48,353 bases of DNA from Nitrospirota bacterium. GTDB taxonomy: Bacteria; JACPQY01. Below the pieces are notes generated by a model, which had not been told where the DNA came from, ran no database searches, and was given only the letters and a program-made list of their open reading frames with translations. Shown here piece by piece: positions 249 to 32,794 of this stretch. The stretch is taken from NCBI GenBank assembly GCA_016180645.1, contig JACPAV010000009.1:62001-110353 (forward strand), in the 5' to 3' direction. A program made the translations under genes and the position numbers. Position 1 is the stretch's first letter, and the number at the start of each line of letters is the position of its first letter.

Positions 249-1124
249 CTACTCGATGTTCTGGGCCTGTTGGCGCATTTTCTCGGTCGTTGCCTTCAAC
301 GAGAGGACCACGGGGACCCACGCCTGTGCCTCACACTTGGCGGCCATCGTCGAGATCTCGCGGTGCATCTCTTGCAAGAGAAAATCCAGCTTGCGGCCGG
401 CCTCTGTTTCCTTGCCAAGAATCGACTCGAACTGGGAGAGGTGGCTTTTCATGCGCGCCAACTCCTCCGTCACATCGCTCCGTTCCATCACATAGGCCAT
501 TTCCGTCTGGAACCGCTTGGAGTCCGCCTCCTCTCCCAGGAGGTCGGCCAAGCGCGACTTCAGCCGAGCGGCCCTCAAGCCTTTTTCTTCTTCCAGGCCC
601 GCTTCCAGCTGCGCCAGGGCGCCGCGCATCTCGCTGAGGTGATGGGTGAACTCACGGCCGAGCGTTTCTCCTTCACGTTTCCGGAGCGAAAGGAATTCAT
701 CGAGCGCCTTTTGGAACGATTTACGAAGCGCCGGCTTCATCCCTTCGAGGCGGGCATGGTTCTCCGTGGTGGTCCGGACGGCGCCGGGCAGGGTGAGGAG
801 ATATTCCAAGCGAACGGATCCTTCGATCTTGAGCTTCCGCCCGAGCTTGACGAACGTGTCGCGGTAGCGGCGGACGGCTGCTTCGTCCACCTCCAGATGG
901 GGCGCGGGAGCCCCTCCGGAAACGCGAAGCGTCACATCCACACGGCCCCGCTTGCAGGCCTTTCGGATCTTGTCCTGAATCTCCTGCTCCAGATCATCCA
1001 GGCCGTCGGGCATCCGGACGTTCAGCTCGAAAAAGCGATGGTTGACTCCCTTGATGACCCACTCGGCCTCACACCCCTTTTCACGCTGGGCCGCGCGGCC
1101 GAATCCCGTCATGCTGATCAGCAT
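249..1124 (-). CDS. yicC: YicC/YloC family endoribonuclease
   Basis: N-terminal SMTGFGR, IKGVNHRF and RGRVD; C-terminal DVTEELARMKSH, GRKLDFLLQEMHRE and QAQNIE. ATG at 1124 preferred over the ORF-track start at 1142. Confidence 0.95.
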   Translation of the reverse strand: MLISMTGFGRAAQREKGCEAEWVIKGVNHRFFELNVRMPDGLDDLEQEIQDKIRKACKRGRVDVTLRVSGGAPAPHLEVDEAAVRRYRDTFVKLGRKLKIEGSVRLEYLLTLPGAVRTTTENHARLEGMKPALRKSFQKALDEFLSLRKREGETLGREFTHHLSEMRGALAQLEAGLEEEKGLRAARLKSRLADLLGEEADSKRFQTEMAYVMERSDVTEELARMKSHLSQFESILGKETEAGRKLDFLLQEMHREISTMAAKCEAQAWVPVVLSLKATTEKMRQQAQNIE

Positions 1125-1131
1125 CGGAACG

Positions 1132-1410
1132 TCACCCCGCACCTTTTCCGGATGGAGGACGCAGACTTTGTTCCATGCGTCGCTTCAACTGGCCGTACGC
1201 CTTCCCAAAGTACTTGAGTCTCTTCTCACGATTCTTTGCGTCCTCCGCGGAAGCATAGGCCTCATAGTACACCAATCGAACGGGCAAGTGTTCTTTTGTG
1301 GACTCAACTTTGCCTCCGCGATGCATGGCCAATCTATGCCGCAGGTCGTTTGTGTATCCAATGTACATCCAACTTTCGCTGGCGCCACAGAGTATGTAGA
1401 CGTAATGCAT
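1132..1410 (-). CDS. Small stand-alone GIY-YIG nuclease family protein
   Basis: YVYIL...MYIGYTNDLRHRLAMH...LVYYEAY...AKNREKRLK gives both Tyr motifs and the conserved Arg and Glu. About 50% GC over 1201-1380 by hand count, against about 60% in a yicC sample. Confidence 0.93.
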   Translation of the reverse strand: MHYVYILCGASESWMYIGYTNDLRHRLAMHRGGKVESTKEHLPVRLVYYEAYASAEDAKNREKRLKYFGKAYGQLKRRMEQSLRPPSGKGAG

Positions 1411-1433
1411 CGCGATCCGGGAAAGGTGCGGGG
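1135..1433. mobile_element. Putative mini-element: GIY-YIG gene bounded by 19-bp inverted repeats
   Basis: 1135-1153 CCCCGCACCTTTTCCGGAT matches the reverse complement of 1415-1433 (CCCCGCACCTTTCCCGGAT) at 18/19 positions. The repeats are directly visible; mobility is inferred. Confidence 0.65.
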
Positions 1434-3449
1434 CTATAACATGTTGACCGGATCAACGTCCAGACGAACTTCGTAGCCGGCTCGACGTGGGCCTTTCGCA
1501 TCGAGAAGCCCTTCCATCACCTCATGCAGGCCTTTCGACGTGTCGGCTTTGAGCAGAATTTGCCATCGGTAGTGGCCCCGGAGTCGATACAGAGGAGCCG
1601 GAGCCGGCCCGAGAACCTCAACTCCCTTTCCGCCCGCCATCTGTTTGGTCGCTTGGAGAACGGCCAGCGCGCCTTCTCCTCCAACGACCTCATGACGCGC
1701 CCGAATTCGAATCATCGCCAATCGCTTGTAAGGGGGATAGCCCCACTGCCGGCGCAGCCGAAGTTCCGTTTCGTAGAATCGGGATTCGTCGTAGTGCTTC
1801 GCGGAGTCGATGGCATGATGGTCGGGCGACATCGTCTGGATGAAGACGCGACCCTTTTGTTCACCTCGTCCCGCCCGCCCCGCCGCCTGGAGGATTTGCT
1901 GGTAGGTGCGTTCCGCCGATCGAAAATCGGGGAGGAAGAGTCCCAAATCCGCATCCACAACGCCCACGAGCGTAATCTGCGGGTAGTGGTACCCCTTCGT
2001 GATCATCTGTGTGCCGACGGCGATCTGGATGGCCCCGCTCTCCATGCCTTCCATGATTTCGAACCGTCGCTTCTTGCTCTGCGCGGTATCCATGTCCAAT
2101 CGGGCGATCCCGGTTTGCGGGAAGAGGGCACGAATATCCTCTTCGATCTTCTGGGTGCCGGCTCCCGCCATCGCCACGGATGTGCTTTTGCACTCCGAGC
2201 AGACTTCCGGGAGGTCCTGCCGATGATCGCAGTAGTGGCATCGCATATGCCGATCGGCCTTGTGGTACGTGAGCGTGATATCGCAATGGGGGCATTTCAC
2301 TCCTTCGCCGCAGTCCATGCAGCGAAGGACGGGAGCGAATCCACGCCGATTGAGAAACAAAACGACTTGTCCGCGGCGTTCAAGCGTATCCACCATCGCC
2401 TTGTGGAGTTGCGGCGATAGCCAGGATAGTCGCTTGTCCGGATTCCGCTTGAACCGCATGTCCACCACATCCACATCCGGGAGCGGGCGATCGGATACGC
2501 GCCGCGCCAGACGTATCAAGCGGTATTTTCCCCTCGATGCGTTGGCGTGGGACTCCAACGAAGGTGTCGCCGATCCCAGCACCACGGGGGCCTTCCAGCG
2601 CTGCCCCATGACGAGGGCCACGTCGCGGGCATGGTACGTTACGCCGTCTTCCTGCTTGTAGGCATGGTCATGCTCTTCATCGGCCACGATCAGGCCGACA
2701 TCCTTCAGTGGGGCGAAGAGCGCGGATCGCGCGCCCACGACCACGTCCGCCTGGCCGGATCGGATCCGATCCCACTCATCCCACCGACGGCGCGAGGTCA
2801 GCTTGCTGTGCAGGAGGGCCACGCGGTCGGGAAATGCGGACACGAAATGCCGCGCCACATGGGAGGTCAGCCCGATTTCCGGCACGAGGACGACGACGCC
2901 CCGACCCTGCTGCACGGCGGCCCGGGCCATCTCCACGTAGAGGATTGTTTTGCCGCTCCCGGTGATGCCGTGCACGAGAAACGGAGCGAAACGGCGCTCA
3001 CGCGCGGCCGGGAGCATGATGTTCAAGGCGGCCGTCTGTTCCACGGTGTACTGCGAAGGGAGTTCCGTGGGTTTGAGAAGAAATTCGGATGGGACTTTCG
3101 ACTTGCGCTTCCGCTCCCGATGAACGTTGCGTTTCCACCCGCCTCGCAGGAGGGTGGGAAAGAACAGATCGAGCGTTTCGCCAAGGGATCGCCCGTAGTA
3201 GGAGGCCATCCATTCGGCAAGTTGCCATGCCTCCTCGCCGATGAGCGGCTCGGAATCGACGATTTCCTTGACGTCCTTGACTTCGCCTTCGAACGGCGTT
3301 GCATGAACGCCCGCGAGGTAGCCCACGACAAAACTTTTCTTGAATGGGACGAGGACGCGCTGGCCTCGCTGCGGGGACACGGATAATCCATCCCCCAACC
3401 GGTAGGTGAACAGGTGCCGCACCGCGATGGGCACGGCCACATCGACCAA
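1434..3449 (-). CDS. priA: Primosomal protein N' (replication restart helicase PriA)
   Basis: Walker A HGITGSGKT, VLVPEI, DEEHD, LGSATPS, FLNRRGF, four CxxC pairs, GTQMITKG and a C-terminal DVDP. TTG start is uncertain. Confidence 0.97.
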   Translation of the reverse strand: MVDVAVPIAVRHLFTYRLGDGLSVSPQRGQRVLVPFKKSFVVGYLAGVHATPFEGEVKDVKEIVDSEPLIGEEAWQLAEWMASYYGRSLGETLDLFFPTLLRGGWKRNVHRERKRKSKVPSEFLLKPTELPSQYTVEQTAALNIMLPAARERRFAPFLVHGITGSGKTILYVEMARAAVQQGRGVVVLVPEIGLTSHVARHFVSAFPDRVALLHSKLTSRRRWDEWDRIRSGQADVVVGARSALFAPLKDVGLIVADEEHDHAYKQEDGVTYHARDVALVMGQRWKAPVVLGSATPSLESHANASRGKYRLIRLARRVSDRPLPDVDVVDMRFKRNPDKRLSWLSPQLHKAMVDTLERRGQVVLFLNRRGFAPVLRCMDCGEGVKCPHCDITLTYHKADRHMRCHYCDHRQDLPEVCSECKSTSVAMAGAGTQKIEEDIRALFPQTGIARLDMDTAQSKKRRFEIMEGMESGAIQIAVGTQMITKGYHYPQITLVGVVDADLGLFLPDFRSAERTYQQILQAAGRAGRGEQKGRVFIQTMSPDHHAIDSAKHYDESRFYETELRLRRQWGYPPYKRLAMIRIRARHEVVGGEGALAVLQATKQMAGGKGVEVLGPAPAPLYRLRGHYRWQILLKADTSKGLHEVMEGLLDAKGPRRAGYEVRLDVDPVNML

Positions 3450-3466: not shown

Positions 3467-3778
3467 TCAGTACCCCAGGGCGAACAGGAAAGCAGACCGA
3501 ATCTCCAGCATCTTGCGGGCGCTTAGCGTGGTGACCAGCGCCCCCAGTCTTCCTTTAGAGACCGTCTGAAGGTGATCCAGGTTCACTGCGCACTCCCTGG
3601 GCATGCCGTCGGAAGACGCCAGCAGCACTTCCGACGGGATCCCCCGAATCGTGCTCGTGATCGGGGCCACGGTAACCTCACCCAGGTACTCGAGGATCGA
3701 ATCCCTCGTGAGGATCACAACGGGACGCGTTTTGTCGGGTCGCTGGAATCGGTACCAGCGGACTTCTCCCCGCCTCAC
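3467..3778 (-). CDS. mazF: PemK/MazF family toxin (mRNA interferase)
   Basis: RRGEVRW...KTRPVVILTRD...VTVAPITSTIRGIPSEV...VNLDHLQTV. GTG at 3778 overlaps the antitoxin stop (GTGA). Confidence 0.93.
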   Translation of the reverse strand: MRRGEVRWYRFQRPDKTRPVVILTRDSILEYLGEVTVAPITSTIRGIPSEVLLASSDGMPRECAVNLDHLQTVSKGRLGALVTTLSARKMLEIRSAFLFALGY

Positions 3779-4008
3779 TCGTCGCCCCAGGCCTGTTCCG
3801 ATTCCCACACCGAGAACTCTCCGCGCTGGACGGCCTTCCGGGCGTATCCGTCGCGGTGCTTCCGCTCCTGCTCAAGGATTCGAAGTTTCTCCAACGCTTC
3901 GCGCAGGGCCCTACGCGCAAAGGCCGAGCGCGTCGTCCCCAAGCGGCCGGCCACCCGATCCACCTGGGAAACCAAGTCGTCATCCAGCGTCATCTGCACC
4001 GTCTTCAT
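3775..4008 (-). CDS. Ribbon-helix-helix (CopG/MazE-type) antitoxin
   Basis: MKTVQMTLDDDLV..VD......TTRSAFARRALREAL is an RHH pattern; the gene lies directly upstream of and coupled to the toxin. Confidence 0.9.
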   Translation of the reverse strand: MKTVQMTLDDDLVSQVDRVAGRLGTTRSAFARRALREALEKLRILEQERKHRDGYARKAVQRGEFSVWESEQAWGDE

Positions 4009-4030
4009 CGCCCGTCCGCTCCATTCATAG

Positions 4031-4073
4031 CTATGACTATAGTTATAGTAATCAACATCGCTATCCCTGTCAA
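4031..4073 (-). promoter_or_regulatory. Sigma70-type promoter of the TA module with overlapping operator palindrome
   Basis: TTGACA (4073-4068), 17 nt, TACTAT (4050-4045). Imperfect palindrome CTATGACTATAGTTATAG at 4031-4048 overlaps the -10/+1 region. Confidence 0.8.
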
Positions 4074-4302
4074 CGCCTGTGCCACCGGCGAATCAGCATG
4101 GCACTCTCCGCGGACTTCCGGGCCGTCCCCGTCGCCAGGAAGGCACGGGGCCATGAGATGTCGCCGCGCCTAGGACGGCGCGGCATTGAACATGGCCTGG
4201 CCCTCCCGGAAGCTTCAAGGGCGATACATCCCGAACCCCTGCCGGTATAGACGCCTCGCCTCACGCTCGGCTTGATTCGGCAGGGGCCGCACCATCCATG
4301 GC

Positions 4303-4378
4303 TGGTGGAGCTGAGGGGAGTTGAACCCCTGGCCTCGTCGTTGCGAACGACGCGCTCTCCCAACTGAGCTACAGCCCC
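4303..4378 (-). tRNA. tRNA-Ala(CGC)
   Basis: GGGGCTGTAGCTCAGTTGGGAGAGCG-CGTCG-TTCGCAA-CGACG-...GGTTCAACTCC...CAGCTCCACCA; 76 nt, G3:U70 pair, encoded CCA. Confidence 0.98.
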
Positions 4379-21712: not shown

Positions 21713-23695
21713 GTGGCCAAGTTCTTCGTCACTACGCCGATCTATTACGTCAACGACGTGCCACACATCGGACACGCCTACACCACCGTCGCCGCAGATA
21801 TCCTCGCCCGCTATCACCGGATGATTGGGGATGATGTCTTCTTCCTCACCGGAACGGACGAGCACGGGAAAAAAGTGGAACACGCTGCCGCGAAGCAGGG
21901 AAAGAACGCCCGGCACCTTGCGGATGACGTCCACGTTCGTTTCAAGGAACTTTGGAAGACGCTCAACATCTCCAACGACCATTTCATCCGGACCACGGAC
22001 ATGGAGCACTACCATGCCGTGGCGGAATTCTGGGATCGCGCAAGAAAGAACGGCGACATCTTCCTCGGCGACTACGAGGGGTGGTATTGCACGCCGTGCG
22101 AAACGTTCTGGACGGAGAAGGAGCTTGTCCTCGCTGGAACTCTTCAGAGCGGGGGGATTAGCCCGACGACGGGCGCGATGATCGCTGAGCCTCAGGAACC
22201 GATCCTGTTGTGTCCAACTTGCAAACGCCGGACCGAGAAGCTCAAACAGCCAAGCTACTTCTTCAAGTTGGGGAAGTACCGAAGTTGGCTGCTCGACTAT
22301 TTCAAGAACAACCCCGGCTCGATCCTTCCTGAGTCACGACGCAACGAGGTCCTGGGATTCCTCCAATCCGAGGAACTGAAGGACTTGAGCATCAGCCGCA
22401 CGGATTTTTCCTGGGGCATCCCCGTCCCCGGCGATCCGAAGCACGTCATTTATGTCTGGTTCGACGCCCTCATCAATTACCTTACCGCCAGTCACTACAC
22501 GCCGGGCCGTGAATCGTCTTGGCCCGCAAGTGTCCATCTCGTCGGAAAGGACATCCTCCGCTTCCACACGGTCTACTGGTTCGCGTTTCTGAAATCGGCC
22601 GGATTCCCGCCGCCGCAGTCGGTGTTCGCTCACGGCTGGTGGACGATCGACGGTCAGAAGATGAGCAAGTCGCTGGGCAACGTGATCGACCCTTTCGAGG
22701 TCACGGCGAAATACGGCGTGGACCCCTTCCGATATTTCCTCTTCAGGGAAGTGCCTTTCGGACAGGACGGCAACTACTCCAACCGGCTCCTGGAAGCCCG
22801 TCTCAATGGCGATCTGGCGAACGACCTCGGAAATCTTTTGAGTCGGGTGGTGAGTGTGGCCGTGCAGCATTTCCCGGCGGGAACCATCCGTGGGCCGCTC
22901 AACCACAATCCGGCCGCCCTGGGAGAATTGGGTACGCAACTTCTCGTCAAGCGGGAGAGAATGCGGAAGAAATGGCAGGAGGCGCTCCAAACTTTGAACC
23001 TCCAGGGCGCGCTGGAAGCGACGTGGGAGCTGCTCCGGGAGGCCAACGGTTACGTCGACCGGACTCGGCCCTGGGAATTGAAAGGCAAGGAGAGCGGCAC
23101 GCCCGTCCTTATTGAACTGTTGGAGACCCTGCGCCACGTGGCGATCTTCATCCAGCCGTTCATGCCGCACACATCGCAGGCCATCGGTCAACAAATCGCG
23201 GGCCGGGATTTCTTCGACGCCGCCAGTCGGCCCGCCGATTCGGCCTTCTCGAATCTGGAGAGCAAGTATCCTCTCGAAAACGGATGTAAGATTGAAAAGG
23301 GGAAGCACCTCGTCGAGCGGATCGACCTGCTCCCCGAAAAGCCAAAGGAGAACAAAGTGGAAGCAACCGACAACCTCCTCGGCATCGAGGAATTTCAAAA
23401 GATCGAACTCCGCTCCGGTGTCATCCTGAGCGCCGAAGAAGTGCCTAATTCGAAAAGACTCATCAAGCTCCAGGTTGATCTTGGAAACGAACAGCGGCAG
23501 GTGGTGGCGGGCATCAAGCACGTTTACACGGCGGCGGACGTGGTCGGCAAGAAAGTCGTGGTCGTCACCAATCTCAAACCGGCGAAAATCATGGGCGTGG
23601 AATCGCAAGGGATGGTGCTTGCGGCCAGCGAAGGCGACGCCCTCACGCTGGTCAGCTTCGACCGGGAGGTGAAGCCGGGGTGGAAGGTCAAGTAG
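21713..23695 (+). CDS. metG: Methionine--tRNA ligase with C-terminal tRNA-binding domain
   Basis: TTPIYYVNDVPHIGH, GTDEHG, YVWFDALINY, GKDILRFH, KMSKS and C-terminal NLKPAKIMGVESQGM. Confidence 0.98.
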   Translation: MAKFFVTTPIYYVNDVPHIGHAYTTVAADILARYHRMIGDDVFFLTGTDEHGKKVEHAAAKQGKNARHLADDVHVRFKELWKTLNISNDHFIRTTDMEHYHAVAEFWDRARKNGDIFLGDYEGWYCTPCETFWTEKELVLAGTLQSGGISPTTGAMIAEPQEPILLCPTCKRRTEKLKQPSYFFKLGKYRSWLLDYFKNNPGSILPESRRNEVLGFLQSEELKDLSISRTDFSWGIPVPGDPKHVIYVWFDALINYLTASHYTPGRESSWPASVHLVGKDILRFHTVYWFAFLKSAGFPPPQSVFAHGWWTIDGQKMSKSLGNVIDPFEVTAKYGVDPFRYFLFREVPFGQDGNYSNRLLEARLNGDLANDLGNLLSRVVSVAVQHFPAGTIRGPLNHNPAALGELGTQLLVKRERMRKKWQEALQTLNLQGALEATWELLREANGYVDRTRPWELKGKESGTPVLIELLETLRHVAIFIQPFMPHTSQAIGQQIAGRDFFDAASRPADSAFSNLESKYPLENGCKIEKGKHLVERIDLLPEKPKENKVEATDNLLGIEEFQKIELRSGVILSAEEVPNSKRLIKLQVDLGNEQRQVVAGIKHVYTAADVVGKKVVVVTNLKPAKIMGVESQGMVLAASEGDALTLVSFDREVKPGWKVK

Positions 23696-25152
23696 CCACG
23701 AGCCACGAGCCACGAGCCACGAGCCACGATTCCGCTCTGGCCGACTCCCACACCCACCTCGTGATGTTCAAGCCCGAAGATCGGGCCGGCATTCTGGCCC
23801 GCGCCCGCGCACAGAACGTTCATCTCATGGTGGTGCCTGGGACCACACTTGCCGACAGCGCCGAGGCCGTCGAATTCGCCCGGGGGGAGCCGGATGTTTT
23901 CGCCACGGTTGGAGTTCACCCGCATGAGGCGAAGGACGCCCCCGCCGATCTGGAGGACCGCCTGACCGAGTGGGCCGGGGACGGCAAAGTGGCGGCGATC
24001 GGAGAAATCGGGCTCGATTTCCACTACAACCTCTCACCCAGGGATGTTCAACAGGCCTGCTTCGAAAGGCAACTTGCGCTCGCCCGGAAGGTCCGCAAGC
24101 CCATCGTCGTCCACATCCGCGAAGCATTCGGCGAAGCACGGGAACTGATGCAAGTCGGGCACGCTGACGAAGTCGGCGGCGTCATCCACTGTTTCACGGG
24201 AACCTACAACGATGCCAAAAGCTTCCTCGATCTGGGCTTCTGCATTTCATTCTCAGGAATCTTAACCTTCCCCAAGGCGGACTCGCTGAGGGAAGCCGCC
24301 CGGAAGATCCCGATCGAACGAATCCTCATCGAAACCGATGCCCCGTATCTTGCACCGGTGCCCCACAGAGGAAAGGAAAATGAGCCGGCCTTTCTCCCGC
24401 ACACCGCGCAGGTTCTAGCCGATCTGAAATCGCTGGCGATTCATGACGTCGCCCGGATCACCTGCGTCAACACCCGCCGCGTGTTCCGGATCGCCGAGGA
24501 CGCGGTCCGCACAGCCGATGGTCGGTCCAAGGCGTGGCCAAAGCAAATCGATCTCCACCCGAAAATCGCCTACCGGATCCGGGACTCGGTCTACTTGAAT
24601 ATCACCAACAAGTGCACGATCTCGTGCGTGTTCTGCCCCAAGTTCGACGATTTCATGGTCAAGGGGCACTATCTCAAGCTCTCACGCGAGCCGGACGCGT
24701 CCACCATCCTCTCCGAGATCGGCGACCTCGCGGGCGTTCAGGAAGTCGTTTTCTGCGGATTTGGCGAATCCACGCTGCGGATGGATGCGCTCAAAGACAC
24801 GGCGAGAGCACTCAAGGCGAAAGGCGTGAAAGTCCGGTTGGACACCGACGGCCTCGGCAATCTCGTCCACGGGCGAAACATTCTCCCCGAACTGAAAGGA
24901 TTGATTGACAGTGTGTCCATCAGCCTGAATGCCTCGAATCCGGAAGAGTATGCCCGGCTCTGCCCTTCAAAGTACGAGGGAATCGCCTACCCTGCCGTCA
25001 AGGAATTCATTCGAGAAGCCAAGGTATGGATTCCCGATGTCCAAGCCACCGTCGTGACCGTGCCGGGTGTCAATGTCGAAGCCTGCCGGCGGATCGTAGA
25101 GGACGAACTCGGCGTCCGCTTCCGCGCCCGCGAATACAACAACGTCGGTTAG
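23680..25152 (+). CDS. tatD: TatD family nuclease fused to a TatD-associated radical SAM domain
   Basis: DSHTHL, GVHPH, IGEIGLDF, VIHCFTG and ETDAPYLAP, followed by YLNITNKCTISCVFC (CxxxCxxC) and EVVFCGFGE. GTG start inside the metG end with GGAGG upstream. Confidence 0.92.
   Translation: MEGQVATSHEPRATSHDSALADSHTHLVMFKPEDRAGILARARAQNVHLMVVPGTTLADSAEAVEFARGEPDVFATVGVHPHEAKDAPADLEDRLTEWAGDGKVAAIGEIGLDFHYNLSPRDVQQACFERQLALARKVRKPIVVHIREAFGEARELMQVGHADEVGGVIHCFTGTYNDAKSFLDLGFCISFSGILTFPKADSLREAARKIPIERILIETDAPYLAPVPHRGKENEPAFLPHTAQVLADLKSLAIHDVARITCVNTRRVFRIAEDAVRTADGRSKAWPKQIDLHPKIAYRIRDSVYLNITNKCTISCVFCPKFDDFMVKGHYLKLSREPDASTILSEIGDLAGVQEVVFCGFGESTLRMDALKDTARALKAKGVKVRLDTDGLGNLVHGRNILPELKGLIDSVSISLNASNPEEYARLCPSKYEGIAYPAVKEFIREAKVWIPDVQATVVTVPGVNVEACRRIVEDELGVRFRAREYNNVG
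23694..23728. repeat. Perfect heptamer tandem repeat (AGCCACG)x5
   Basis: Five exact copies starting within the metG stop codon. Confidence 0.95.
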
Positions 25153-25991
25153 GGAGTCCCGACAGCGACAAATGAGAACCCCCCGGGCGGGTCTACTCCA
25201 CGGCCGGCCGCATCAAGGAACTTTATTCGGAATCCGCTTCGGATGGCCATGACCTTTGCCCGTACCGCCGGCGCCATCGATCCATCCAAGGGGCGAGTAT
25301 CATCGGGCAAGCCTCCTATGTGGTCAAGAAAAGCTTTGGTGTTCGCAAGCTTCTCAGCTTCCAAGAACTGAAGGTTTTCCTGGAGAATGGATTCATCAAC
25401 GAAACAGGGCCAATTCAAACACCACCGTTCTTCATCACCCGAGTTCTCAACCGGTATGGCGTACGCAACGAGCGGGCTATTGCGGGTTCTCGCCTCAGTT
25501 TTTCCAAACAATCCGGGTAGCGCCAAAGCGCTCGCTTCAGCCGTTAGGTATGCGCCCGTCCACTTTTGCCGCTTCTCGCCTGAGAGTAGCCCGGGAAGCG
25601 CTGAAGAAAGGAACACCCTTCGATCAGGGTCATCGAGAAAATCGCCAAGTCCGATGCAACCACGCAGAGGAAATCGATCTTGAAAAGCTCGTTCCAACAG
25701 AAGTAAACAGGCAAATATGAAATTCCCAATGTTCTTGACGTCTTCTACGTGTTGCGAAACAAGAAGAATCGAGTCGAAAGCGATGAGGGTCTTCTCGAAA
25801 TTCGACCGCACGTCCTTCCCCGTGCCATCCCGGGAAGAGGTTTGTGAACTGAACACGTGGGCATTAGCGAAGTCAACGAATTTGCCGAACCGGGCGTGGA
25901 GATTCGGAAGCGACTCATTACACAGGCTCTGACCAAATCCCAAGATGTCAAAAAAACCGATGAGCCGATTCCTGAAAACTGCCACTTCCAT
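25149..25991 (-). CDS. Hypothetical protein with class III nucleotidyl cyclase-like motifs
   Basis: LIGFFDILGF...AFDSILL...FPLRGCIGLGDF; AT-richer than its neighbours; stop overlaps the tatD stop. Confidence 0.6.
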   Translation of the reverse strand: MEVAVFRNRLIGFFDILGFGQSLCNESLPNLHARFGKFVDFANAHVFSSQTSSRDGTGKDVRSNFEKTLIAFDSILLVSQHVEDVKNIGNFIFACLLLLERAFQDRFPLRGCIGLGDFLDDPDRRVFLSSALPGLLSGEKRQKWTGAYLTAEASALALPGLFGKTEARTRNSPLVAYAIPVENSGDEERWCLNWPCFVDESILQENLQFLEAEKLANTKAFLDHIGGLPDDTRPLDGSMAPAVRAKVMAIRSGFRIKFLDAAGRGVDPPGGFSFVAVGTP

Positions 25992-26104
25992 CCTGATGGG
26001 CTACCTACGGTCTTTTGACCAAGCCATTTGCAAGGCAATACCTATTCCACCAAGAGAGCAAGGAACGGCGGGCGGCAAAGGGCCGAAGGGTGGGCGCATT
26101 CCGC

Positions 26105-26491
26105 TCATCCGAACGACACGATCCCTTTCCGGTCGTCGAACTCGACCTTGTACCGGTTGAAAAACCCCTTCCGGCCAAGGAGGTTGAATCCGGCATGAAG
26201 ATCCGGAGAAATAGCGATGGGCGCGGCAAATCGGTCTGGACCCAGTTGGATTTCAAGATCGTGGACAAAGAGCAGGAGTTCATGGCCAGTCGCGGAGCGC
26301 GAGTGACGCACCCTCCCTCTCCGATAGTCGAATTCCGCCGGGGCAAGATTCGCCGACAGGACGGTGTAGGCTGCGCCAGAGTCCACGTAGACATGGGCGG
26401 TCCGCCACTTCCCAGCGAGGTGGATGCCGATGGGGACTACCGGATGCGAATCGGAGCCAAGCTTGGCGTACGGGAAAGCAATACGAAGCAC
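26105..26491 (-). CDS. Retropepsin-like (clan AA) single-domain aspartic protease
   Basis: HVYVDSGAAYTVL (D-S/T-G) and a C-terminal NLLGR.GFF; 128 aa. Confidence 0.85.
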   Translation of the reverse strand: MLRIAFPYAKLGSDSHPVVPIGIHLAGKWRTAHVYVDSGAAYTVLSANLAPAEFDYRRGRVRHSRSATGHELLLFVHDLEIQLGPDRFAAPIAISPDLHAGFNLLGRKGFFNRYKVEFDDRKGIVSFG

Positions 26492-26766
26492 TTGATATCC
26501 TCTTCAGACGGAACCGAGACCAGGAGGGGAATGGCAGAAGGATGTTTTTTCTCGGCAGTTGAAATGGCTTCGTCAGCCGTCGCTCCGACGCCAGCGACGG
26601 CATGATCCACCACGGCAACGATCTTGTGGGGATATTGTTTGACGAGATCGCCGAAATGGGCGACAACCCACTTGTTCTCGTAGGTCAGGGCCCTTGTGAG
26701 TGAATCGAGTGGCCTTGTGTTTTGCGCGGTCGCTGCTTTTCTCCGCCCGTTCCGTCTTCTTCCCAT
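26437..26766 (-). CDS. DUF5678-like small protein
   Basis: WVVAHFGDLVKQYPHKIVAVVDHAVAGVGATADEA...AEKKHP pattern; overlaps the protease gene start by 55 nt. Confidence 0.7.
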   Translation of the reverse strand: MGRRRNGRRKAATAQNTRPLDSLTRALTYENKWVVAHFGDLVKQYPHKIVAVVDHAVAGVGATADEAISTAEKKHPSAIPLLVSVPSEEDIKCFVLLSRTPSLAPIRIR

Positions 26767-26772
26767 ATGGAA

Positions 26773-26801
26773 AGTATGCGCCGACCCCTTCTCGTCGTCA
26801 A
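26773..26801 (-). promoter_or_regulatory. Sigma70-type promoter, probably leaderless transcript
   Basis: TTGACG (26801-26796), 17 nt, CATACT (26778-26773), then 6 nt to ATG 26766. Confidence 0.65.
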
Positions 26802-26891
26802 CGATGGACCTCTGCGCGTACGACAGGTATTTCTCCCGCTTGCCTTTTGCCGGGGCCTGTGATTAGGTCGGGCCATTAAGAGGAGTTGATC

Positions 26892-27032
26892 ATGAGTATC
26901 TTTCGAATCGTTCAACTGGCCACCACGTCGCATTTGACGTCTTCCGAGATTCCGTCGCTTCTTCTCTACTTGGTCTCCGGAGCGGTCGGAGTCCTGCTCG
27001 CGGCTTATCTCGTCGCGCGAAAACGCACCTGA
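26892..27032 (+). CDS. 46-aa single-pass membrane protein (below ORF-track cutoff)
   Basis: SD AAGAGGAG 6 nt before ATG; MSIFRIVQLATTSHLTSSEIPSLLLYLVSGAVGVLLAAYLVARKRT. Confidence 0.65.
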   Translation: MSIFRIVQLATTSHLTSSEIPSLLLYLVSGAVGVLLAAYLVARKRT

Positions 27033-27081
27033 CGGTGGCCCGTCCCAGCCTCGCCGCCCCCTTCCGCGCATAGGGGGTGCG

Positions 27082-28140
27082 GTGAGATTGTTGACCCGGG
27101 CGCCCCTGTTTCTCTGCCTCTTCCTCACCGCGTACGCATCCTCCGTTTTCGCGTGGAGCCGCCATGACCACATCACTCGCCTCTCACTCGAATCCGTCCG
27201 GGAACTGACAGACCTCCCAACCGCCACCGTCACCCCGCTCTCAGAGTCGGACCCGTCCCTGAGTCCCGTCTACGTCCCACCGTACCAAGCCGTCCCCAAG
27301 CCCGAGGGATTCCAGCCGGCCGACGTGACCGATACAAGCCCGGTGGGACTGATCGGCGAGCCGCTCGGAGGCACAATCACCCCTCGACGCATTCTCATCG
27401 AGTTTTCCTCCGAACCCGATTGGGGAATGGACAAGGGCCTCAAATTGGACTTCGCTCAAAAGCTCCAAGGCGGAAGCCAGGGCTACCGGCACATCTTGTA
27501 TCCAGCCGGGACGTTTCATGTCCCCTACGCATTCCTCAATCAAGGCGAGCCACCGAAGCGCGCGAAACACTTCGTCGAGCAAGCCCACCGGGCGCTGGCG
27601 CGCGGCGACGCGTACTGGTTCTGGAGAAACATGGCGCGGGCACTCCACTATATCCAGGATGTGGGGCAGCCGTATCACACCGGCCAAACCTCACTCGATT
27701 TCCTGGTCAAGGGAGACATCCTCGCCGGCACGATCGAGGCCACGACAAACTATCACCTCGCTTATGAGACGTTTGTGGCCAACCAACTGATCGCCGAAAT
27801 CCAAGGAGGCGTGCTCCGCTACACCTCCGCCCTCCGAGGGGCATCCTCCCGGAAAGAGTGCAAAGCCGATCGCCTCGTCCAAGACATCGCGTCGGACAAC
27901 GCCCCCCGCGGCCGCCGGCTCATGCAACTCTCCGTCCCCTTCCTGGGCCCGGCATTCAAGACGGGCCAGAAGCGCCGTATGACCGAATCAGAGTTTCTTG
28001 GCCTCGTCGGGAAAACCAGAAAGGGCGCAGAGGATTTCGATCGTGAAACTCGCGCCGCCCTGCAGTTGACCGCGGAAACCACGAGGGGCTTCGTTGCATG
28101 CGCCCTGGAGACCTTCTACAATCGAAACGGACGTCCATGA
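27082..28140 (+). CDS. Secreted zinc-dependent phospholipase C / S1-P1 nuclease fold protein
   Basis: Signal peptide ending VFA, mature N-terminus W-S-R-H (a Zn-binding Trp1 is typical of the fold), EPD, ALHYIQDVGQPYH, YHLAYE. Confidence 0.75.
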   Translation: MRLLTRAPLFLCLFLTAYASSVFAWSRHDHITRLSLESVRELTDLPTATVTPLSESDPSLSPVYVPPYQAVPKPEGFQPADVTDTSPVGLIGEPLGGTITPRRILIEFSSEPDWGMDKGLKLDFAQKLQGGSQGYRHILYPAGTFHVPYAFLNQGEPPKRAKHFVEQAHRALARGDAYWFWRNMARALHYIQDVGQPYHTGQTSLDFLVKGDILAGTIEATTNYHLAYETFVANQLIAEIQGGVLRYTSALRGASSRKECKADRLVQDIASDNAPRGRRLMQLSVPFLGPAFKTGQKRRMTESEFLGLVGKTRKGAEDFDRETRAALQLTAETTRGFVACALETFYNRNGRP

Positions 28141-28604
28141 ACATTCAACTTGGTTACGCGCATGTCCTGGCCCTCCTCCTTGTGGGGGTGGCCTTTGTCT
28201 TCGTCAACATCCTGGTGGGGCGACTCGTCCAACCGCGCAAGCTTTCCCGTGGTAAGGCCCTGGCCTACGAATGCGGAGAAATTCCCGTGGGCACGGGGTG
28301 GATCGGCTTCAATATCCGGTTCTATATTTTTGCCCTGATTTTTCTCATCTTCGACGTGGAGATGGCGGTGACATTTCCGGTCGGTGTGATCTTCCGGCAG
28401 TGGCAGGCCGACGGTCGCGGATGGCTCGTCTTCACCGAGTTGGCCGTCTTTCTCGGCATTCTCTTCGTGGGGCTCATCTATCTCTGGCGGTGCGGAGATC
28501 TGAACTGGCTGAAGTCGATCGCGCCCGGCGAAGGCCCGGCAAAGGCCAGGAAAGCCTTTGAACGGAAGTTCTTTGACGACAAAGGTTATGGCCCCACCAC
28601 CTGA
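28137..28604 (+). CDS. nuoA: NADH-quinone oxidoreductase subunit A
   Basis: YECGE, FNIRFYIFALIFLIFDVE, GLIYLWR.GDLNW; ATGA overlap with the upstream gene. Confidence 0.95.
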   Translation: MNIQLGYAHVLALLLVGVAFVFVNILVGRLVQPRKLSRGKALAYECGEIPVGTGWIGFNIRFYIFALIFLIFDVEMAVTFPVGVIFRQWQADGRGWLVFTELAVFLGILFVGLIYLWRCGDLNWLKSIAPGEGPAKARKAFERKFFDDKGYGPTT

Positions 28605-28650
28605 AGCAGGCGCGTCAGCGCCTCGTCCCGAGGCGGTTCCAGGTGGTGGG

Positions 28651-29169
28651 ATGAAGGCACCGGACATCGCTGAGCGATTGAAGGCCAAGTTTCCCGATGC
28701 CGTGCTGGAAGTGCAGACGGACGCGAAGCAGCCCTGGATCAAGATCCGTCCCCAGGATCTGGCCGAGGTCGCCCGCACTCTTCACGACAATCCGGAGTTG
28801 TCTTTCGATGCGCTGATGTGCCTGAGCGGCGTGGACTACCCGAACGAACTCGCCGGTGTGTATCACCTCTTCTCCTACAAGCATCGCCATGCCATCGTGG
28901 TCAAGACGTTCGTCCCCAAGACCGATGCTCACGTTCCAACCGTGTCCGGCCTCTGGAGGGGAGCGGATTGGTTCGAACGCGAGGCGTTTGACCTTCTCGG
29001 AATCGTATTCGACGGCCACCCCGATCTTCGCCGGCTCATGATGCCGGAGGATTGGGTCGGCCATCCTCTGCGAAAGGACTACCAGGAACCCGAGCGATAT
29101 CTGGGGATGGACACGCCCCGGAAGTATCCTACAGCGGCCCCTGCGGAGGAGCCGAAAAAGGTGGCCTGA
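28651..29169 (+). CDS. nuoC: NADH-quinone oxidoreductase subunit C
   Basis: LSGVDY, ADWFEREAFDLLGIVFDGHPDLRRLMMPEDWVGHPLRKDY. Alternative start ATG 28588. Confidence 0.95.
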   Translation: MKAPDIAERLKAKFPDAVLEVQTDAKQPWIKIRPQDLAEVARTLHDNPELSFDALMCLSGVDYPNELAGVYHLFSYKHRHAIVVKTFVPKTDAHVPTVSGLWRGADWFEREAFDLLGIVFDGHPDLRRLMMPEDWVGHPLRKDYQEPERYLGMDTPRKYPTAAPAEEPKKVA

Positions 29170-29171
29170 AG

Positions 29172-30287
29172 ATGGCGCTCCGCACTGAAGAAGTCGTCCT
29201 CAACATGGGGCCGCACCATCCGAGCACGCACGGGGTCCTCCGCTTCGTGCTCAAGGCGGACGGTGAAATCATCGAAGAAGTCATCCCCGACGTCGGTTAC
29301 CTCCATCGCTCCATCGAAAAAATCTGCGAGAAAGTGCCCTACCTCGAATTCGTGCCGTACACGGACCGGGTAGACTACATCTCCGGAATGAATTCGAACT
29401 GGGCCTACTGCCTGGCGGTCGAACGCCTCGCCGGACTGGAAATCCCGCGGCGCGCAGAACTCTTGAGAGTCATCGCCTGCGAACTCAACCGAATTTCCAG
29501 CCACCTCATCGCCGTCGGCGCCATGGGGATGGACGTGGGCGCCACCACGCCGTTCCTTCACGCCGTGCGCGATCGGGAAAGAATCAACGACCTTTTCGAA
29601 ATGCTGTGCGGCGCGAGATTGACGTACAGTTATATCTGGATCGGCGGCGTATCCCTGGACGCCCCGCAGGCCTTTCTGGACCGGACCCGGGAGTTCCTCG
29701 ACTATATCGCCCCGAAGTTCCAGGAGTTCAACCAGCTCCTCACCGGGAACAAGATCTACGTGGAGCGCCTGGCCAACGTGGGTGCAATTACGGCTGATGA
29801 CGCGATCAACTTCGGCCTGGTCGGACCCAATCTCCGGGCCTGCGGAGTGAATTTTGATCTCCGCAAAGACGAGCCGTACTCGGTCTACCCCGAGCTGGAG
29901 TTCGACGTTCCCGTGGGACGGGGCGAGGCCGGAACCGTGGGCGACTGCTTCGACCGGTACATCGTCCGCATCCGCGAGATGATCGAGAGCATCCGGATCA
30001 TCCGCCAGTGCCTCGACCGGATCGAGCCGGGCGAGTTCCGGGCCAAGACGAAAAAGAAACTGAAGCCGCCGCCGGGCGAGGTGTACGTGCGCACGGAGGC
30101 CCCGAGGGGAGAAATGGGATACTTCCTCATGAGTGACGGCACGGAAAAAGCCTACCGGTGCAAGATCCGCACCGGCTCTTTCTCGGCCATGAACGCCATC
30201 CCTTTCATCGCCAAAGGATGGATGGTGGCCGACCTCGTGGCGATCATCGCCAGCCTGGACGTAGTGGCCCCGGAGGTCGACCGCTAG
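29172..30287 (+). CDS. nuoD: NADH-quinone oxidoreductase subunit D
   Basis: LNMGPHHPSTHGVLR, GYLHRSIEK, DRVDY, EAPRGE and C-terminal EVDR. Confidence 0.97.
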   Translation: MALRTEEVVLNMGPHHPSTHGVLRFVLKADGEIIEEVIPDVGYLHRSIEKICEKVPYLEFVPYTDRVDYISGMNSNWAYCLAVERLAGLEIPRRAELLRVIACELNRISSHLIAVGAMGMDVGATTPFLHAVRDRERINDLFEMLCGARLTYSYIWIGGVSLDAPQAFLDRTREFLDYIAPKFQEFNQLLTGNKIYVERLANVGAITADDAINFGLVGPNLRACGVNFDLRKDEPYSVYPELEFDVPVGRGEAGTVGDCFDRYIVRIREMIESIRIIRQCLDRIEPGEFRAKTKKKLKPPPGEVYVRTEAPRGEMGYFLMSDGTEKAYRCKIRTGSFSAMNAIPFIAKGWMVADLVAIIASLDVVAPEVDR

Positions 30288-31438
30288 TGGTCTGGCTCGC
30301 ACCCCGCCTTGTGCTGCCTCCCATCGTGGTCGGCCTGACCGGCGGGGTACCGCACCATCCGTGGCTGGATGCCCTGACGGCACAGACCGGCGTGAGCCGC
30401 ACGCTCTGGGTGATTGCCTACCTCGGCGTTCTTGGCGCCATTGCTGTCACGCTTGTCGCCGTCGCCGGTGGGGTCCTGAGTTGGGCCGAGCGCAGGATCG
30501 CCGGACGAATGCAGGCCCGCATCGGACCGAACCGGGTCGGCCCCGCCGGCTTCCTCCAATGGCTGGCAGATGGCATCAAGCTCATCCTGAAGGAGGATTT
30601 CATTCCGCCGGCAGCGGATGGCCTCCTCTTCCGCCTCGCGCCGTACATTATTTTCTGCGCGATGTTTCTCACGGTCGCCGTTCTCCCCTTCGGCCGGTCC
30701 CTCATCATTTATGACTTGAATCTCGGCATTTTCTACCTCCTGGCCATTTCTTCCATCGTCGTCATCGGAATCGTCATGGCCGGCTGGTCCTCCAACAACA
30801 AGTGGTCCGTGTACGGGTGCTTCCGTTCCGCGGCGCAACTCGTGAGCTATGAAGTTCCCCGCGGACTCGCCGTGCTGGCCGTGGTCATCTCGGCCGGTTC
30901 GCTCAGCATGCAGTCCATCGTCACCGAGCAATCGGGAGGATGGCTTGGCGTCACGAACTGGTACATCTTTCACGACCCGTTTCTCTTTGTCAGTTTCTTC
31001 GTTTTCTACATCGCCTCACTGGCGGAAATAAACCGCACCCCCTTCGACATCCCCGAGGCGGAAACCGAGCTGGTGGCCGGTTACAACACGGAGTACAGCG
31101 GTTTCCGGTTCGCCACGTTCTTCCTTTCGGAGTGGGCCAACGTCGTTTTGACCGGCGTCGTCTCCGCCACCCTTTTCCTGGGCGGCTGGACCGCACTCCA
31201 CGCGTTCGGTAGGGACATCCTTCCGGGTCCTTTCTGGGTAATGGTGAAGGCCGGGGCCGTCGTCTTCCTCACCATCTGGCTTCGGTGGACCTTGCCCCGC
31301 CTGCGCGTGGACCAGCTCATGAGCGTCTGCTGGAAATATCTGGTGCCGATATCGTTCGTCTGCGTGATCGGCTCCGCGGCGTGGACCGCGGCCTTCGGAG
31401 GCCGGGGAGTCCTTGGCCTCTTGGGAGGGCTTCTTTGA
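30287..31438 (+). CDS. nuoH: NADH-quinone oxidoreductase subunit H
   Basis: ERRIAGRMQARIGPNRVGP, ADGIKLILKED, AQLVSYE, AEINRTPFDIPEAETELVAGYNTEYSG, LPRLRVDQ. Start uncertain; GTG overlapping the nuoD stop used. Confidence 0.95.
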   Translation: MVWLAPRLVLPPIVVGLTGGVPHHPWLDALTAQTGVSRTLWVIAYLGVLGAIAVTLVAVAGGVLSWAERRIAGRMQARIGPNRVGPAGFLQWLADGIKLILKEDFIPPAADGLLFRLAPYIIFCAMFLTVAVLPFGRSLIIYDLNLGIFYLLAISSIVVIGIVMAGWSSNNKWSVYGCFRSAAQLVSYEVPRGLAVLAVVISAGSLSMQSIVTEQSGGWLGVTNWYIFHDPFLFVSFFVFYIASLAEINRTPFDIPEAETELVAGYNTEYSGFRFATFFLSEWANVVLTGVVSATLFLGGWTALHAFGRDILPGPFWVMVKAGAVVFLTIWLRWTLPRLRVDQLMSVCWKYLVPISFVCVIGSAAWTAAFGGRGVLGLLGGLL

Positions 31439-32109
31439 TGCGTGAATATGTCCAGAACATCTACGATGCCGTGTCCTCCACCCTCAAGGGCATGGCGATC
31501 ACGTGGAGAAACTTTGTGCGGACACCCGTGACGATCGAATACCCCGACGCCGACATCAAAGGATCTTCCGCCTCCCAGTGGGCGCGCGACTATTTTTCCG
31601 AGGTTCTCGGCCGCCTGGAGAAAGACTACACTCAGTTCCTTTCACCGATGGCCGCGCGGTACCGCGGCTTCCTGACCGTCGACATCCCGAGCTGTATCTC
31701 CTGCCGGATCTGTGAAACGGCCTGTCCCATCAGTTGTATCGTCATCGACGACGTGAAAACGGAAAAGCGCGTCGTGAAGGCCATGGATGGGGAGGACACC
31801 ACCAAGCTGCGCGATCCGGTCCGGTTCGATATCGACATCGGCAAGTGCATGTTCTGCGGTTTGTGCGTGGAGCCCTGTCCCACAGGATCGATATTCTTCA
31901 CAAAGGAATTCGAACTGCCCGTCCCGGAGATCAACGGCCTCCTTTTCAAATTCGTGAGCGACCGACAGGTCCGGGAAACTCGGGAACGCGCGGCCAAAGC
32001 AGCCGCCGCGAAACCGGCTCCCAAGCCCCCGGCGCCCGTCGCGCCCCCCGCACCGGCCACCACCGCACCACCGGCGACATCCACTCCATCACCCACTCAT
32101 GCGTCGTAG
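31438..32109 (+). CDS. nuoI: NADH-quinone oxidoreductase subunit I
   Basis: VTIEYP, RYRG and two ferredoxin motifs CISCRICETACP and CMFCGLCVEPCP; TGATG coupling to nuoH. Confidence 0.93.
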   Translation: MREYVQNIYDAVSSTLKGMAITWRNFVRTPVTIEYPDADIKGSSASQWARDYFSEVLGRLEKDYTQFLSPMAARYRGFLTVDIPSCISCRICETACPISCIVIDDVKTEKRVVKAMDGEDTTKLRDPVRFDIDIGKCMFCGLCVEPCPTGSIFFTKEFELPVPEINGLLFKFVSDRQVRETRERAAKAAAAKPAPKPPAPVAPPAPATTAPPATSTPSPTHAS

Positions 32110-32794
32110 AATTCTCCAAATCCTGTTCCTCATCGCGTTCACCATCGGCGCCTTTGCCGTCAAGGTGTACGTGGAAGGGCGAATCGAGTTCAGGAAAGCC
32201 GGCGAGGCCTACGCCAAGGCCCAAAAGGTGGAAATGGGAACCACCGAGGAGCAGCGAGCCGAATGGGAGCTCGCGTGGGACGACGCGATGGATCACTACG
32301 AGCGGGCCATCAAGTGGTACGTCCCGCGCGTGGGCTACGTGCCGCGTTCTCTGGAGAAACTTTGGGAAATCGGAGAGCGAATGGAGGCGGCGGGCGAGCG
32401 GTTGTACGCCCGCAAGTCCTACGAGAAACTCCGCTCCGCTCTCTACGCCGTCCGAAGCACCTACACTCCGTATCCGGAATGGATTGAGAGATGCGATGGA
32501 AAAATTTCAACCCTCATGGCCATGGAACCGCCCTACTCAGAAGATGACAAACGCAAGAGTTTCGAACAGCGGAAAGAAGAGCACTACAAACTCCTGAAGA
32601 AAGACTATGCGCCGGACGTTTTCTGGTCGATTGTGGCGGTGAGTGGGTTCTTCGGCTGGATCGGATGCGTGTTCGGGTTCATCTGGTTCGCCATGGAGGA
32701 ATCCGGAAAGCTCCGACGTCGGCGCGCCCTCGGCTGGAGCGGAGCATTCGTCCTTTGCTACGCGCTGTGGATTGTCGGCCTGCTGAGGGCCTGA
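32099..32794 (+). CDS. Hypothetical membrane protein with helical soluble domain
   Basis: N-terminal TM, TPR-like helices and two C-terminal TMs; overlaps the nuoI end by 11 nt. Confidence 0.75.
   Translation: MRRRILQILFLIAFTIGAFAVKVYVEGRIEFRKAGEAYAKAQKVEMGTTEEQRAEWELAWDDAMDHYERAIKWYVPRVGYVPRSLEKLWEIGERMEAAGERLYARKSYEKLRSALYAVRSTYTPYPEWIERCDGKISTLMAMEPPYSEDDKRKSFEQRKEEHYKLLKKDYAPDVFWSIVAVSGFFGWIGCVFGFIWFAMEESGKLRRRRALGWSGAFVLCYALWIVGLLRA

Follow-up and report, generated by a model that had tools for sequence, protein, structure and literature searches.

In a 48,353-nucleotide stretch of contig JACPAV010000009.1 from a Nitrospirota bacterium (hereafter, the window), three open reading frames (ORFs), namely priA, a 92-aa ORF and yicC, lie head to tail, all on the minus strand. 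Here we consider the middle one, a small GIY-YIG nuclease gene, along with the inverted repeat that encloses it. The upstream gene (1434..3449, minus) encodes PriA, as judged from its match to NCBIfam TIGR00595, and its TAG stop codon (1434-1436, minus) directly abuts the arm CCCCGCACCTTTCCCGGAT (1415..1433, minus), the 5' arm in gene orientation. A 4-nt spacer, CGCG (1411..1414, minus), leads from this arm to the ATG of the nuclease gene (1132..1410, minus, including the TGA stop; Pfam PF01541, E 8e-12). The 3' arm, ATCCGGAAAAGGTGCGGGG (1135..1153, minus), lies beside yicC and also codes for the tail of the protein, SGKGAG; it is abutted by the nuclease TGA stop (1132-1134, minus). Past the element, a 7-nt spacer and the yicC start codon occupy 1122..1131 (minus; ATG at 1122-1124), and the product is YicC, with TIGR00255 aligned over positions 1-291 of 291 from this ATG. 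In window coordinates, CCCCGCACCTTTTCCGGAT stands at 1135-1153 and its inverted copy at 1415-1433, the two matching at 18 of 19 positions with a single mismatch. The whole cassette, 299 bp (1135-1433), comprises one small GIY-YIG gene within an inverted repeat. A preliminary description of this DNA had 19-bp repeats enclosing only the nuclease gene between priA and yicC, with the right repeat against the priA stop and the left one encoding SGKGAG and abutting the nuclease stop; the coordinates, the 18/19 match, the gene identities and both junctions were confirmed.

With up to 3 mismatches allowed, the two arms are the sole matches over the 48 kb of the window, where 0.03 would be expected, and none of 100 shuffles gave two or more arm matches. 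In an inverted-repeat search of the first 6 kb, the arm pair (19 nt, 95% complementary) had the top identity among 11 pairs. There are no miniature copies in the 48-kb window. An Rfam search at the locus, with E values up to 10, returned no match, so that the arms are not explained by a known RNA family; a tRNA-like reading of the arm was discarded on inspection. Between positions 900 and 3700 of the window, no sigma-70-like promoter was found and the single terminator-like site lies inside priA, none separating priA, the nuclease gene and yicC, which fits co-transcription but proves nothing. The guanine-plus-cytosine (GC) content is 0.538 in the element and 0.521 in its interior, as compared to 0.614 in both priA and yicC and 0.602 in the window; hence, the dip from roughly 60% to about 50% that had been reported is real but smaller than claimed. 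This lower GC content as compared to the neighboring genes suggests horizontal acquisition. The best relative of the nuclease is 60% identical, whereas that of PriA is 49% identical (among the best 120 of 7997 scored proteins, the window's own record excluded), a difference that was also counted in favor of a horizontal origin; from its PriA relatives, the host appears to belong to a poorly sampled lineage.

The Pfam match of the 92-aa protein spans residues 1-66, as a single domain, and the only Pfam families recognized in it are GIY-YIG and T5orf172; NCBIfam holds no model for the protein, and no relative of it was found among phage records. All columns that are invariant in the family are kept in the window protein (Y16, G18, R26, H30 and E62, that is, the catalytic Tyr, Arg, His and Glu) and align with those of an orthologue, in N. 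gonorrhoeae, of the nuclease SsnA, which is discussed below. By analogy, nuclease activity of the cassette protein is predicted. The window copy is intact: the frame is open, the catalytic residues are kept, and the arms match at 18 of 19 positions. An AlphaFold2 model has a mean pLDDT of 89.8, with the tail (residues 84-92) disordered. At 90% identity the window protein is a singleton, its best relative being 60% identical. In an alignment of 40 relatives, many proteins only ~55% identical likewise end in KGAG, GAG or AG, a recurrence of the SGKGAG tail that is due to conservation of the underlying DNA. Relative to the end of the arm, the position of the stop codon varies across the family loci, from 59 nt before it to 31 nt beyond it; given this variation and the disorder predicted for the tail, SGKGAG is an incidental read-through of the arm. 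At L041, L045, L046, L053, L059, L060 and L065 (locus numbers of our survey), a frame that begins with the GIY-YIG domain continues for 241-392 aa, passing through the arm in at least L046, which suggests in-frame fusions with downstream host sequence.

The evidence that carries the interpretation comes from relatives of this cassette. A scan with one genome per species yielded 530 relatives, and the analysis was continued with the 80 best loci. At each of them, the 100 nt preceding the ATG were compared with the surroundings of the stop codon to locate the highest-scoring inverted repeat without gaps. Apart from the window itself, an inverted repeat surrounds the gene in 76 of these 80 loci from other genomes. 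When units with an ORF of 76-110 aa were held to a repeat score of at least 11 and a shuffle p of at most 0.01, 68 of 71 (the window included) passed, the misses being L002, L047 and L049; 9 of the 10 loci initially excluded for ORF length also have an inverted repeat. The exact core CCCGCACC before the gene combined with GGTGCGGG after it, as in the window, is present in 37 of 80 loci (counted by reading), and this pair recurs in other phyla. The consensus of the arms reads (A)(C/T)CCC(G/T)CACCTTT(T), with two columns invariant in 63 of 63 loci, and the outer 12 nt of the 5' arm of the window fit (A)(C/T)CCC(G/T)CACCTTT. Among these 63 loci, arm variants are altered on both arms in every case, a count biased towards pairing inasmuch as the arms were defined as matching segments. 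The arm type clusters on the protein tree, with 14 changes as against a shuffled mean of 26.2. The closest relative of the window protein, and its sister in the tree (SH-aLRT 95), comes from a Nitrospirota bin (L001) and is 60% identical; its element is flanked by a 439-aa ORF on one side and an epimerase-like one on the other, instead of by priA and yicC. As far as sequence comparison goes, it is well supported that the gene and its arms form one unit that entered many sites, the two moving together across phyla.

The sites that were entered fall into a few kinds. Rfam assigns the element to the interior of 16S rRNA at 10 loci, to that of 23S rRNA at 5 and to the 5' part of RNase P RNA at 3, and all 18 of these Rfam-placed elements are on the RNA's own strand. 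In four further loci, the RNase P signature AGGAAAGTCCG follows directly after the arm, and in L026 the element occupies the place of the RNase P helix P3. Some sites are shared between genomes, namely the helix-6 region of 16S rRNA (5 loci) and RNase P (7 loci), and further loci lie beside tRNA genes or within rRNA spacers. Where the neighbors are protein genes, the largest flanking ORF, taken from raw ORFs rather than from curated genes, is co-oriented with the element in 32 of 38 cases upstream and in 35 of 36 cases downstream. Like priA in the window, an upstream ORF in the same orientation stops no more than 1 nt from the arm in 12 of 41 such contexts; starting at the end of the arm, the downstream frame is uninterrupted in 15 of 41. 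The left flank is ATGA, GTGA or TTGA, i.e. a stop/start overlap, in 15 of 36 cases. The terminal base of the element, G or A, together with a duplicated TGA makes a GTG or ATG start for the downstream gene, and AGGTG stands just ahead of this rebuilt start. These counts bear out the suggestion that the cassette enters gene junctions and leaves the operon intact; the location at junctions reflects either target choice or the survival of harmless insertions.

Insertion has also left marks at the boundaries. Outside RNA genes, direct repeats of at least 3 nt abut both ends of the element in 27 of 43 loci, as against 7.8 on average and 16.4 at most over 2000 permutation runs; for repeats of at least 4 nt, the count is 20 of 43, with a permutation mean of 2.7 and a maximum of 9.2. 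These counts exclude L002, L047 and L049 (no inverted repeat), L004 and L062 (nested or reversed elements), and L029 and L055 (doubtful). The duplicated sequences vary by locus (TGAA, TTGA, TGAG, TTTA, TCAA, TCTCA, TAAAA, CTTG, TTATA) and, since they differ between loci, they are target duplications rather than element sequence. Thus, the earlier statement that no target-site duplication is visible stands for the window copy but not for the family. A tRNA gene closely follows the element in L033 and L061 (~3985-4345), and the 5' end of the tRNA is repeated on the far side, over 11 nt in L033 and 7-10 nt in L061; the 11-nt repeat of L033 exceeds the length limit of the script and was left uncounted.

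Furthermore, gene-less miniatures of 32-134 nt with the same ends as the full element are found in L003, L004, L006, L009, L014, L017, L025, L049, L062 and L076. L017 is a tandem array of a miniature, a full element and another miniature, with TGAA between them, and in L062 (2920-8018) a stretch of 5 kb contains four similarly flanked miniatures of ~105 nt. The nuclease gene of L062 is placed between two of these rather than in a stem, which is the layout of the Ssn loci discussed below. In L039, two full elements are adjacent, with different arms in each. L006 (4766-4799), L014 (4485-4516) and L025 (4737-4769) each have, ~500 nt further on, a second, gene-less hairpin of 32-34 nt with the same arm sequence. 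These second hairpins apparently lie in the same RNase P RNA and, from the alignment with L026, are judged to be near P19, so that these RNase P RNAs would carry two element-derived helices. At the family level, therefore, the elements have both the terminal inverted repeats and the target-site duplications of classical insertion sequences (IS), the duplication being absent at the window copy; a classical IS transposase (DDE, HUH, serine or tyrosine recombinase) is lacking, the sole ORF between the arms being that of the GIY-YIG protein.

The arms also carry a strand signal. In 63 loci, 25 arm mismatches are G.U (or G.T) pairs on the sense strand, 5 are such pairs on the antisense strand only, and 8 are transversions, with the bias present both inside RNA genes (15 vs 3) and elsewhere (10 vs 2). 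No such strand bias is expected of a plain double-stranded terminal repeat, and the sense-strand bias argues that the stem works in single-stranded form. When the window element is folded to minimum free energy, the arms close the structure, with z of -3.7 for single-stranded DNA (ssDNA) and -4.0 for RNA.

The nearest characterised system is that of the Ssn nucleases with their flanking hairpin repeats. As described in the main text of Chenal et al. (Nat Commun 2025, PMC11893778), these are GIY-YIG nucleases of ~94 aa that cut ssDNA beside a hairpin repeat, NTS or SRM, and still cut when the hairpin is formed by two oligonucleotides; their genes are flanked by hairpins in a layout that the authors liken to an insertion sequence, and domestication is proposed for Neisseria. 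The preliminary description knew of no characterised element made of a small GIY-YIG gene and inverted repeats, a statement that this related architecture, published in 2025, has made outdated. In a profile comparison, the cassette family matches the N. gonorrhoeae SsnA orthologue with a probability of 98.5% and E 2e-15 and hence is clearly homologous to Ssn. The identity between the cassette family and Ssn proteins is 37-41%, whereas three Ssn proteins are 52-59% identical among themselves; with these identities and the scores of the family hidden Markov model (HMM) as a proxy, the cassette family looks like a sister group of Ssn (cd10448). The locus of the N. gonorrhoeae SsnA orthologue contains 16 NTS copies in 3.2 kb, and two alphaproteobacterial Ssn members have SRM hairpins on both sides. 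One canonical Ssn gene, on plasmid AZO_p3 of Azospirillum lipoferum (L083, 1376-1884), with SRM hairpins on both sides, is located between sufB and sufC in the same orientation, which makes it another operon-internal insertion.

The two systems share a single-domain GIY-YIG protein of about 90-97 aa, inverted-repeat DNA of their own on both flanks of the gene, covariation of repeat and protein variants, and stem ends, TCCCGC...GCGGGA, that resemble the NTS stem. The architecture and the repeat are nevertheless different. In Ssn loci, each flank has complete short hairpins with a CGTCAT leader (4-9 pattern matches in L081-L083), whereas in the cassette each flank is one half of a single long-range stem, with the gene in the loop; the C-terminal helix differs as well. 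The sections of PMC11893778 that were covered say nothing of target duplications, of targeting to junctions or of elements residing in RNA genes, and the terms 'rRNA', 'RNase P', 'Patescibacteria' and 'duplication' are not found in its main text, to which the search extended.

Other systems are less close. IS200/IS605 and REP/RAYT resemble the cassette in that a small element or gene is tied to hairpin repeats that are read in ssDNA and in that gene-less copies exist, but there an HUH Y1 transposase cuts and rejoins the DNA without target duplication, whereas the cassette has only a GIY-YIG protein, with no HUH Y1 domain detected by Pfam, and duplications are frequent. Nor does the cassette resemble a homing element of the I-TevI type, which joins a DNA-binding domain to the nuclease and has one conserved homing site, often in a group I intron; its protein is a single domain of 92 aa, with no Rfam match at the locus and with many unrelated insertion sites. 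Among solved structures, the best match by sequence is 1zg2 (E 8e-13), and by sequence and fold the best are the UPF0213 proteins and SLX1; UPF0213 (YazA, BH0048, EF2693) and SLX1 share the minimal GIY-YIG core with the cassette protein. SLX1 requires SLX4 and acts on branched DNA. The yazA locus of B. subtilis (L084) has no match to the SRM pattern, the only pattern tried there, with no inverted-repeat search made. The cassettes are also similar to the intervening sequences (IVS) of rRNA, whose stem is cut by RNase III, in that an inverted-repeat stem extends the tip of a helix, and some IVS hold a small ORF; to our knowledge, and in part from the introduction of PMC11270868, IVS occur in 23S rRNA only, encode no nuclease and have not been reported at operon junctions.

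GIY-YIG ORFs have been described in non-intron insertions of the rRNA genes of the candidate phyla radiation (CPR), where the main text judges them to be outside homing (Tsurumaki et al., J Bacteriol 2024, PMC11270868). Of our 80 loci, 15 belong to this kind of insertion, lying in 16S or 23S rRNA and being neither group I nor group II introns, and the CPR ORFs are probably in part the same proteins as the cassette family. In the passages covered, that paper is concerned with insertions in rRNA genes alone, with no mention of duplications, miniatures, RNase P or protein-gene junctions, and the term 'inverted repeat' is not found in its main text, to which the search extended. The window copy differs from the CPR insertions in that it is part of a protein operon and its host does not belong to the CPR. 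The literature search, which extended to the main texts of PMC11893778 and PMC11270868, turned up no description of the split-stem unit or of its duplications, miniatures or junction targeting.

On balance, we consider it rather likely that 1135-1433 is a copy of a compact insertion element in which a single-domain GIY-YIG gene is carried inside a conserved inverted repeat. The cassette is probably mobile, as judged from the comparison of loci and not from the window copy itself; the idea of a mobile or repeat-propagating cassette, with which the preliminary description had ended, accordingly gains support, with mobility still a matter of inference. That description named three findings that would refute it, namely homologues without flanking repeats, a motif that occurs nowhere else and vertical inheritance at the locus, and none of them holds: 76 of 80 loci have repeats around the gene, 37 of 80 share the exact 8-mer pair, and the closest relative resides at another locus.

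The following mechanism can be envisaged. The nuclease would act in the manner of the Ssn ssDNA nucleases, the closest relatives to have been characterised, recognising the stem formed by the two arms on the single-stranded sense strand and cutting at its foot. Repair and ligation by the host would then finish excision or copying, followed by insertion at short targets, typically TGA(A). In the transcript, the stem would loop the gene out, such that host RNAs and operons stay functional, while the arm end and the duplicated TGA would recreate a GTG or ATG start, with AGGTG as a Shine-Dalgarno-like site, for the next gene. A bolder extension, which we regard as possible but tentative, is that this is the smallest autonomous mobile element of DNA seen so far, ~300 bp long, whose single-domain ssDNA nuclease is encoded within the loop of its own recognition hairpin, that the NTS/SRM hairpins of Neisseria, Wolbachia and others are gene-less descendants of it, and that it evolved to be harmless via start/stop overlaps and the tips of RNA helices.

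Several points weigh against this interpretation. The support is comparative throughout, no copy having been seen moving, excised or as an empty site. We know of no strand-joining activity of the GIY-YIG domain, so that the joining step is without a candidate enzyme. The window copy has no exact target-site duplication, its flanks being TAG and TGA, and the 48-kb window contains no other copies, solo arms or paired core motifs, only single 8-mers at chance level. None of the 21 elements inside rRNA or RNase P genes has direct repeats of at least 3 nt, which implies either two insertion routes or old copies. The duplications range from 3 to 11 nt, unlike those of classical transposases, and the arm boundaries, and hence the duplication calls, come from custom scripts. 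The sense-strand G.U bias could partly reflect strand-biased mutation, and the arm mismatch of the window copy is a C.A pair in the sense strand, contrary to the family trend. Finally, the similarity to Ssn is only slightly above that to UPF0213, the three SRM-flanked Ssn proteins scoring 61-64 bits with the family HMM and YazA 54.7 bits, and the published SRM pattern, which gave 9 matches in the N. gonorrhoeae locus as a control, was found within 150 nt of the element in none of 70 loci, nor at 900-1700 of the window.

Some of these points would be accommodated if the gene were a domesticated, immobile host nuclease of the Ssn type, engaged, for example, in the control of incoming or replicating ssDNA, with the arms remaining as binding or regulatory sites from an ancient insertion. 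A single copy with no solo arms in 48 kb, intact catalytic residues and the lack of an exact target duplication in the window are what domestication would leave, and the same fate is proposed for Neisseria in the main text of the Ssn paper (PMC11893778); but a domesticated gene accounts poorly for an element with a GC content below that of its neighbors, for a sister copy (L001) at a different locus and for duplications and miniatures throughout the family, and we consider this explanation unlikely. About equally unlikely, in our estimation, is that the stem acts mainly in RNA, making insertions harmless or serving processing, e.g. by RNase III, while the DNA is spread by recombination or homing and the nuclease ignores the arms. 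The sense orientation in 18 of 18 RNA genes, positions at helix tips such as P3 of RNase P, the excess of sense G.U mismatches (25 vs 5) and an RNA fold that closes on the arms all agree with such a role, as does the placement of GIY-YIG ORFs of CPR rRNA insertions outside introns in the main text of PMC11270868. Pairing alone, however, leaves unexplained why the sequence of the outer 12 nt is conserved across phyla when the proteins are only 45-60% identical, and it accounts neither for target duplications nor for miniatures.

A free-standing GIY-YIG homing endonuclease gene, which cuts empty alleles and is copied in by repair, with the inverted repeat being incidental, would have the appropriate domain, would be expected to use the same sites in several genomes, as seen for the 16S helix-6 region (5 loci) and RNase P (7 loci), and would produce no target duplication, in line with the rRNA and RNase P copies. 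Yet there is no DNA-binding domain outside the 92-aa core, the sites are numerous and unrelated, duplications occur elsewhere in the family and the arms are conserved, all of which makes homing quite improbable. A chance inverted repeat about an ordinary small gene deserves hardly any credence: imperfect inverted repeats of 14-25 nt do exist nearby, but the pair was reproduced in 0 of 100 shuffles, and the recurrence of these arms around homologues, at 76 of 80 loci, refutes chance.

If the interpretation as a compact insertion element is correct, it would show how Ssn-type nucleases and their hairpin repeats originated and spread, a question that the Ssn authors, in the main text of their paper, leave open. 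It would also represent a minimal mobile unit that needs no known transposase, would account for the unexplained insertions in the rRNA and RNase P RNA genes of candidate-phyla bacteria, and would provide an example of a natural insertion built in such a way that translational coupling survives. The conserved pairs of arm and protein would, in addition, be candidate tools for programmable cutting of ssDNA.

Several other features of the window may be mentioned. Just upstream of priA (3467-4008, minus), an ORF for a MazF/PemK-like toxin (113 aa) overlaps one for a ribbon-helix-helix protein (77 aa), a pair that looks like a type II toxin-antitoxin system. If it is a genuine gene, a 490-aa ORF (23680-25152, plus) encodes an unusual fusion of a TatD-type DNase domain (residues 22-270) and a radical SAM domain (307-474). 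Positions 25149-32597 contain nine ORFs in a row, each 70-434 aa long, for which Pfam gave no match at E 1e-5. At 40514-43534 (minus), a very long FlgE-like hook protein (1006 aa) is encoded beside FlgD and a FliK-like gene.

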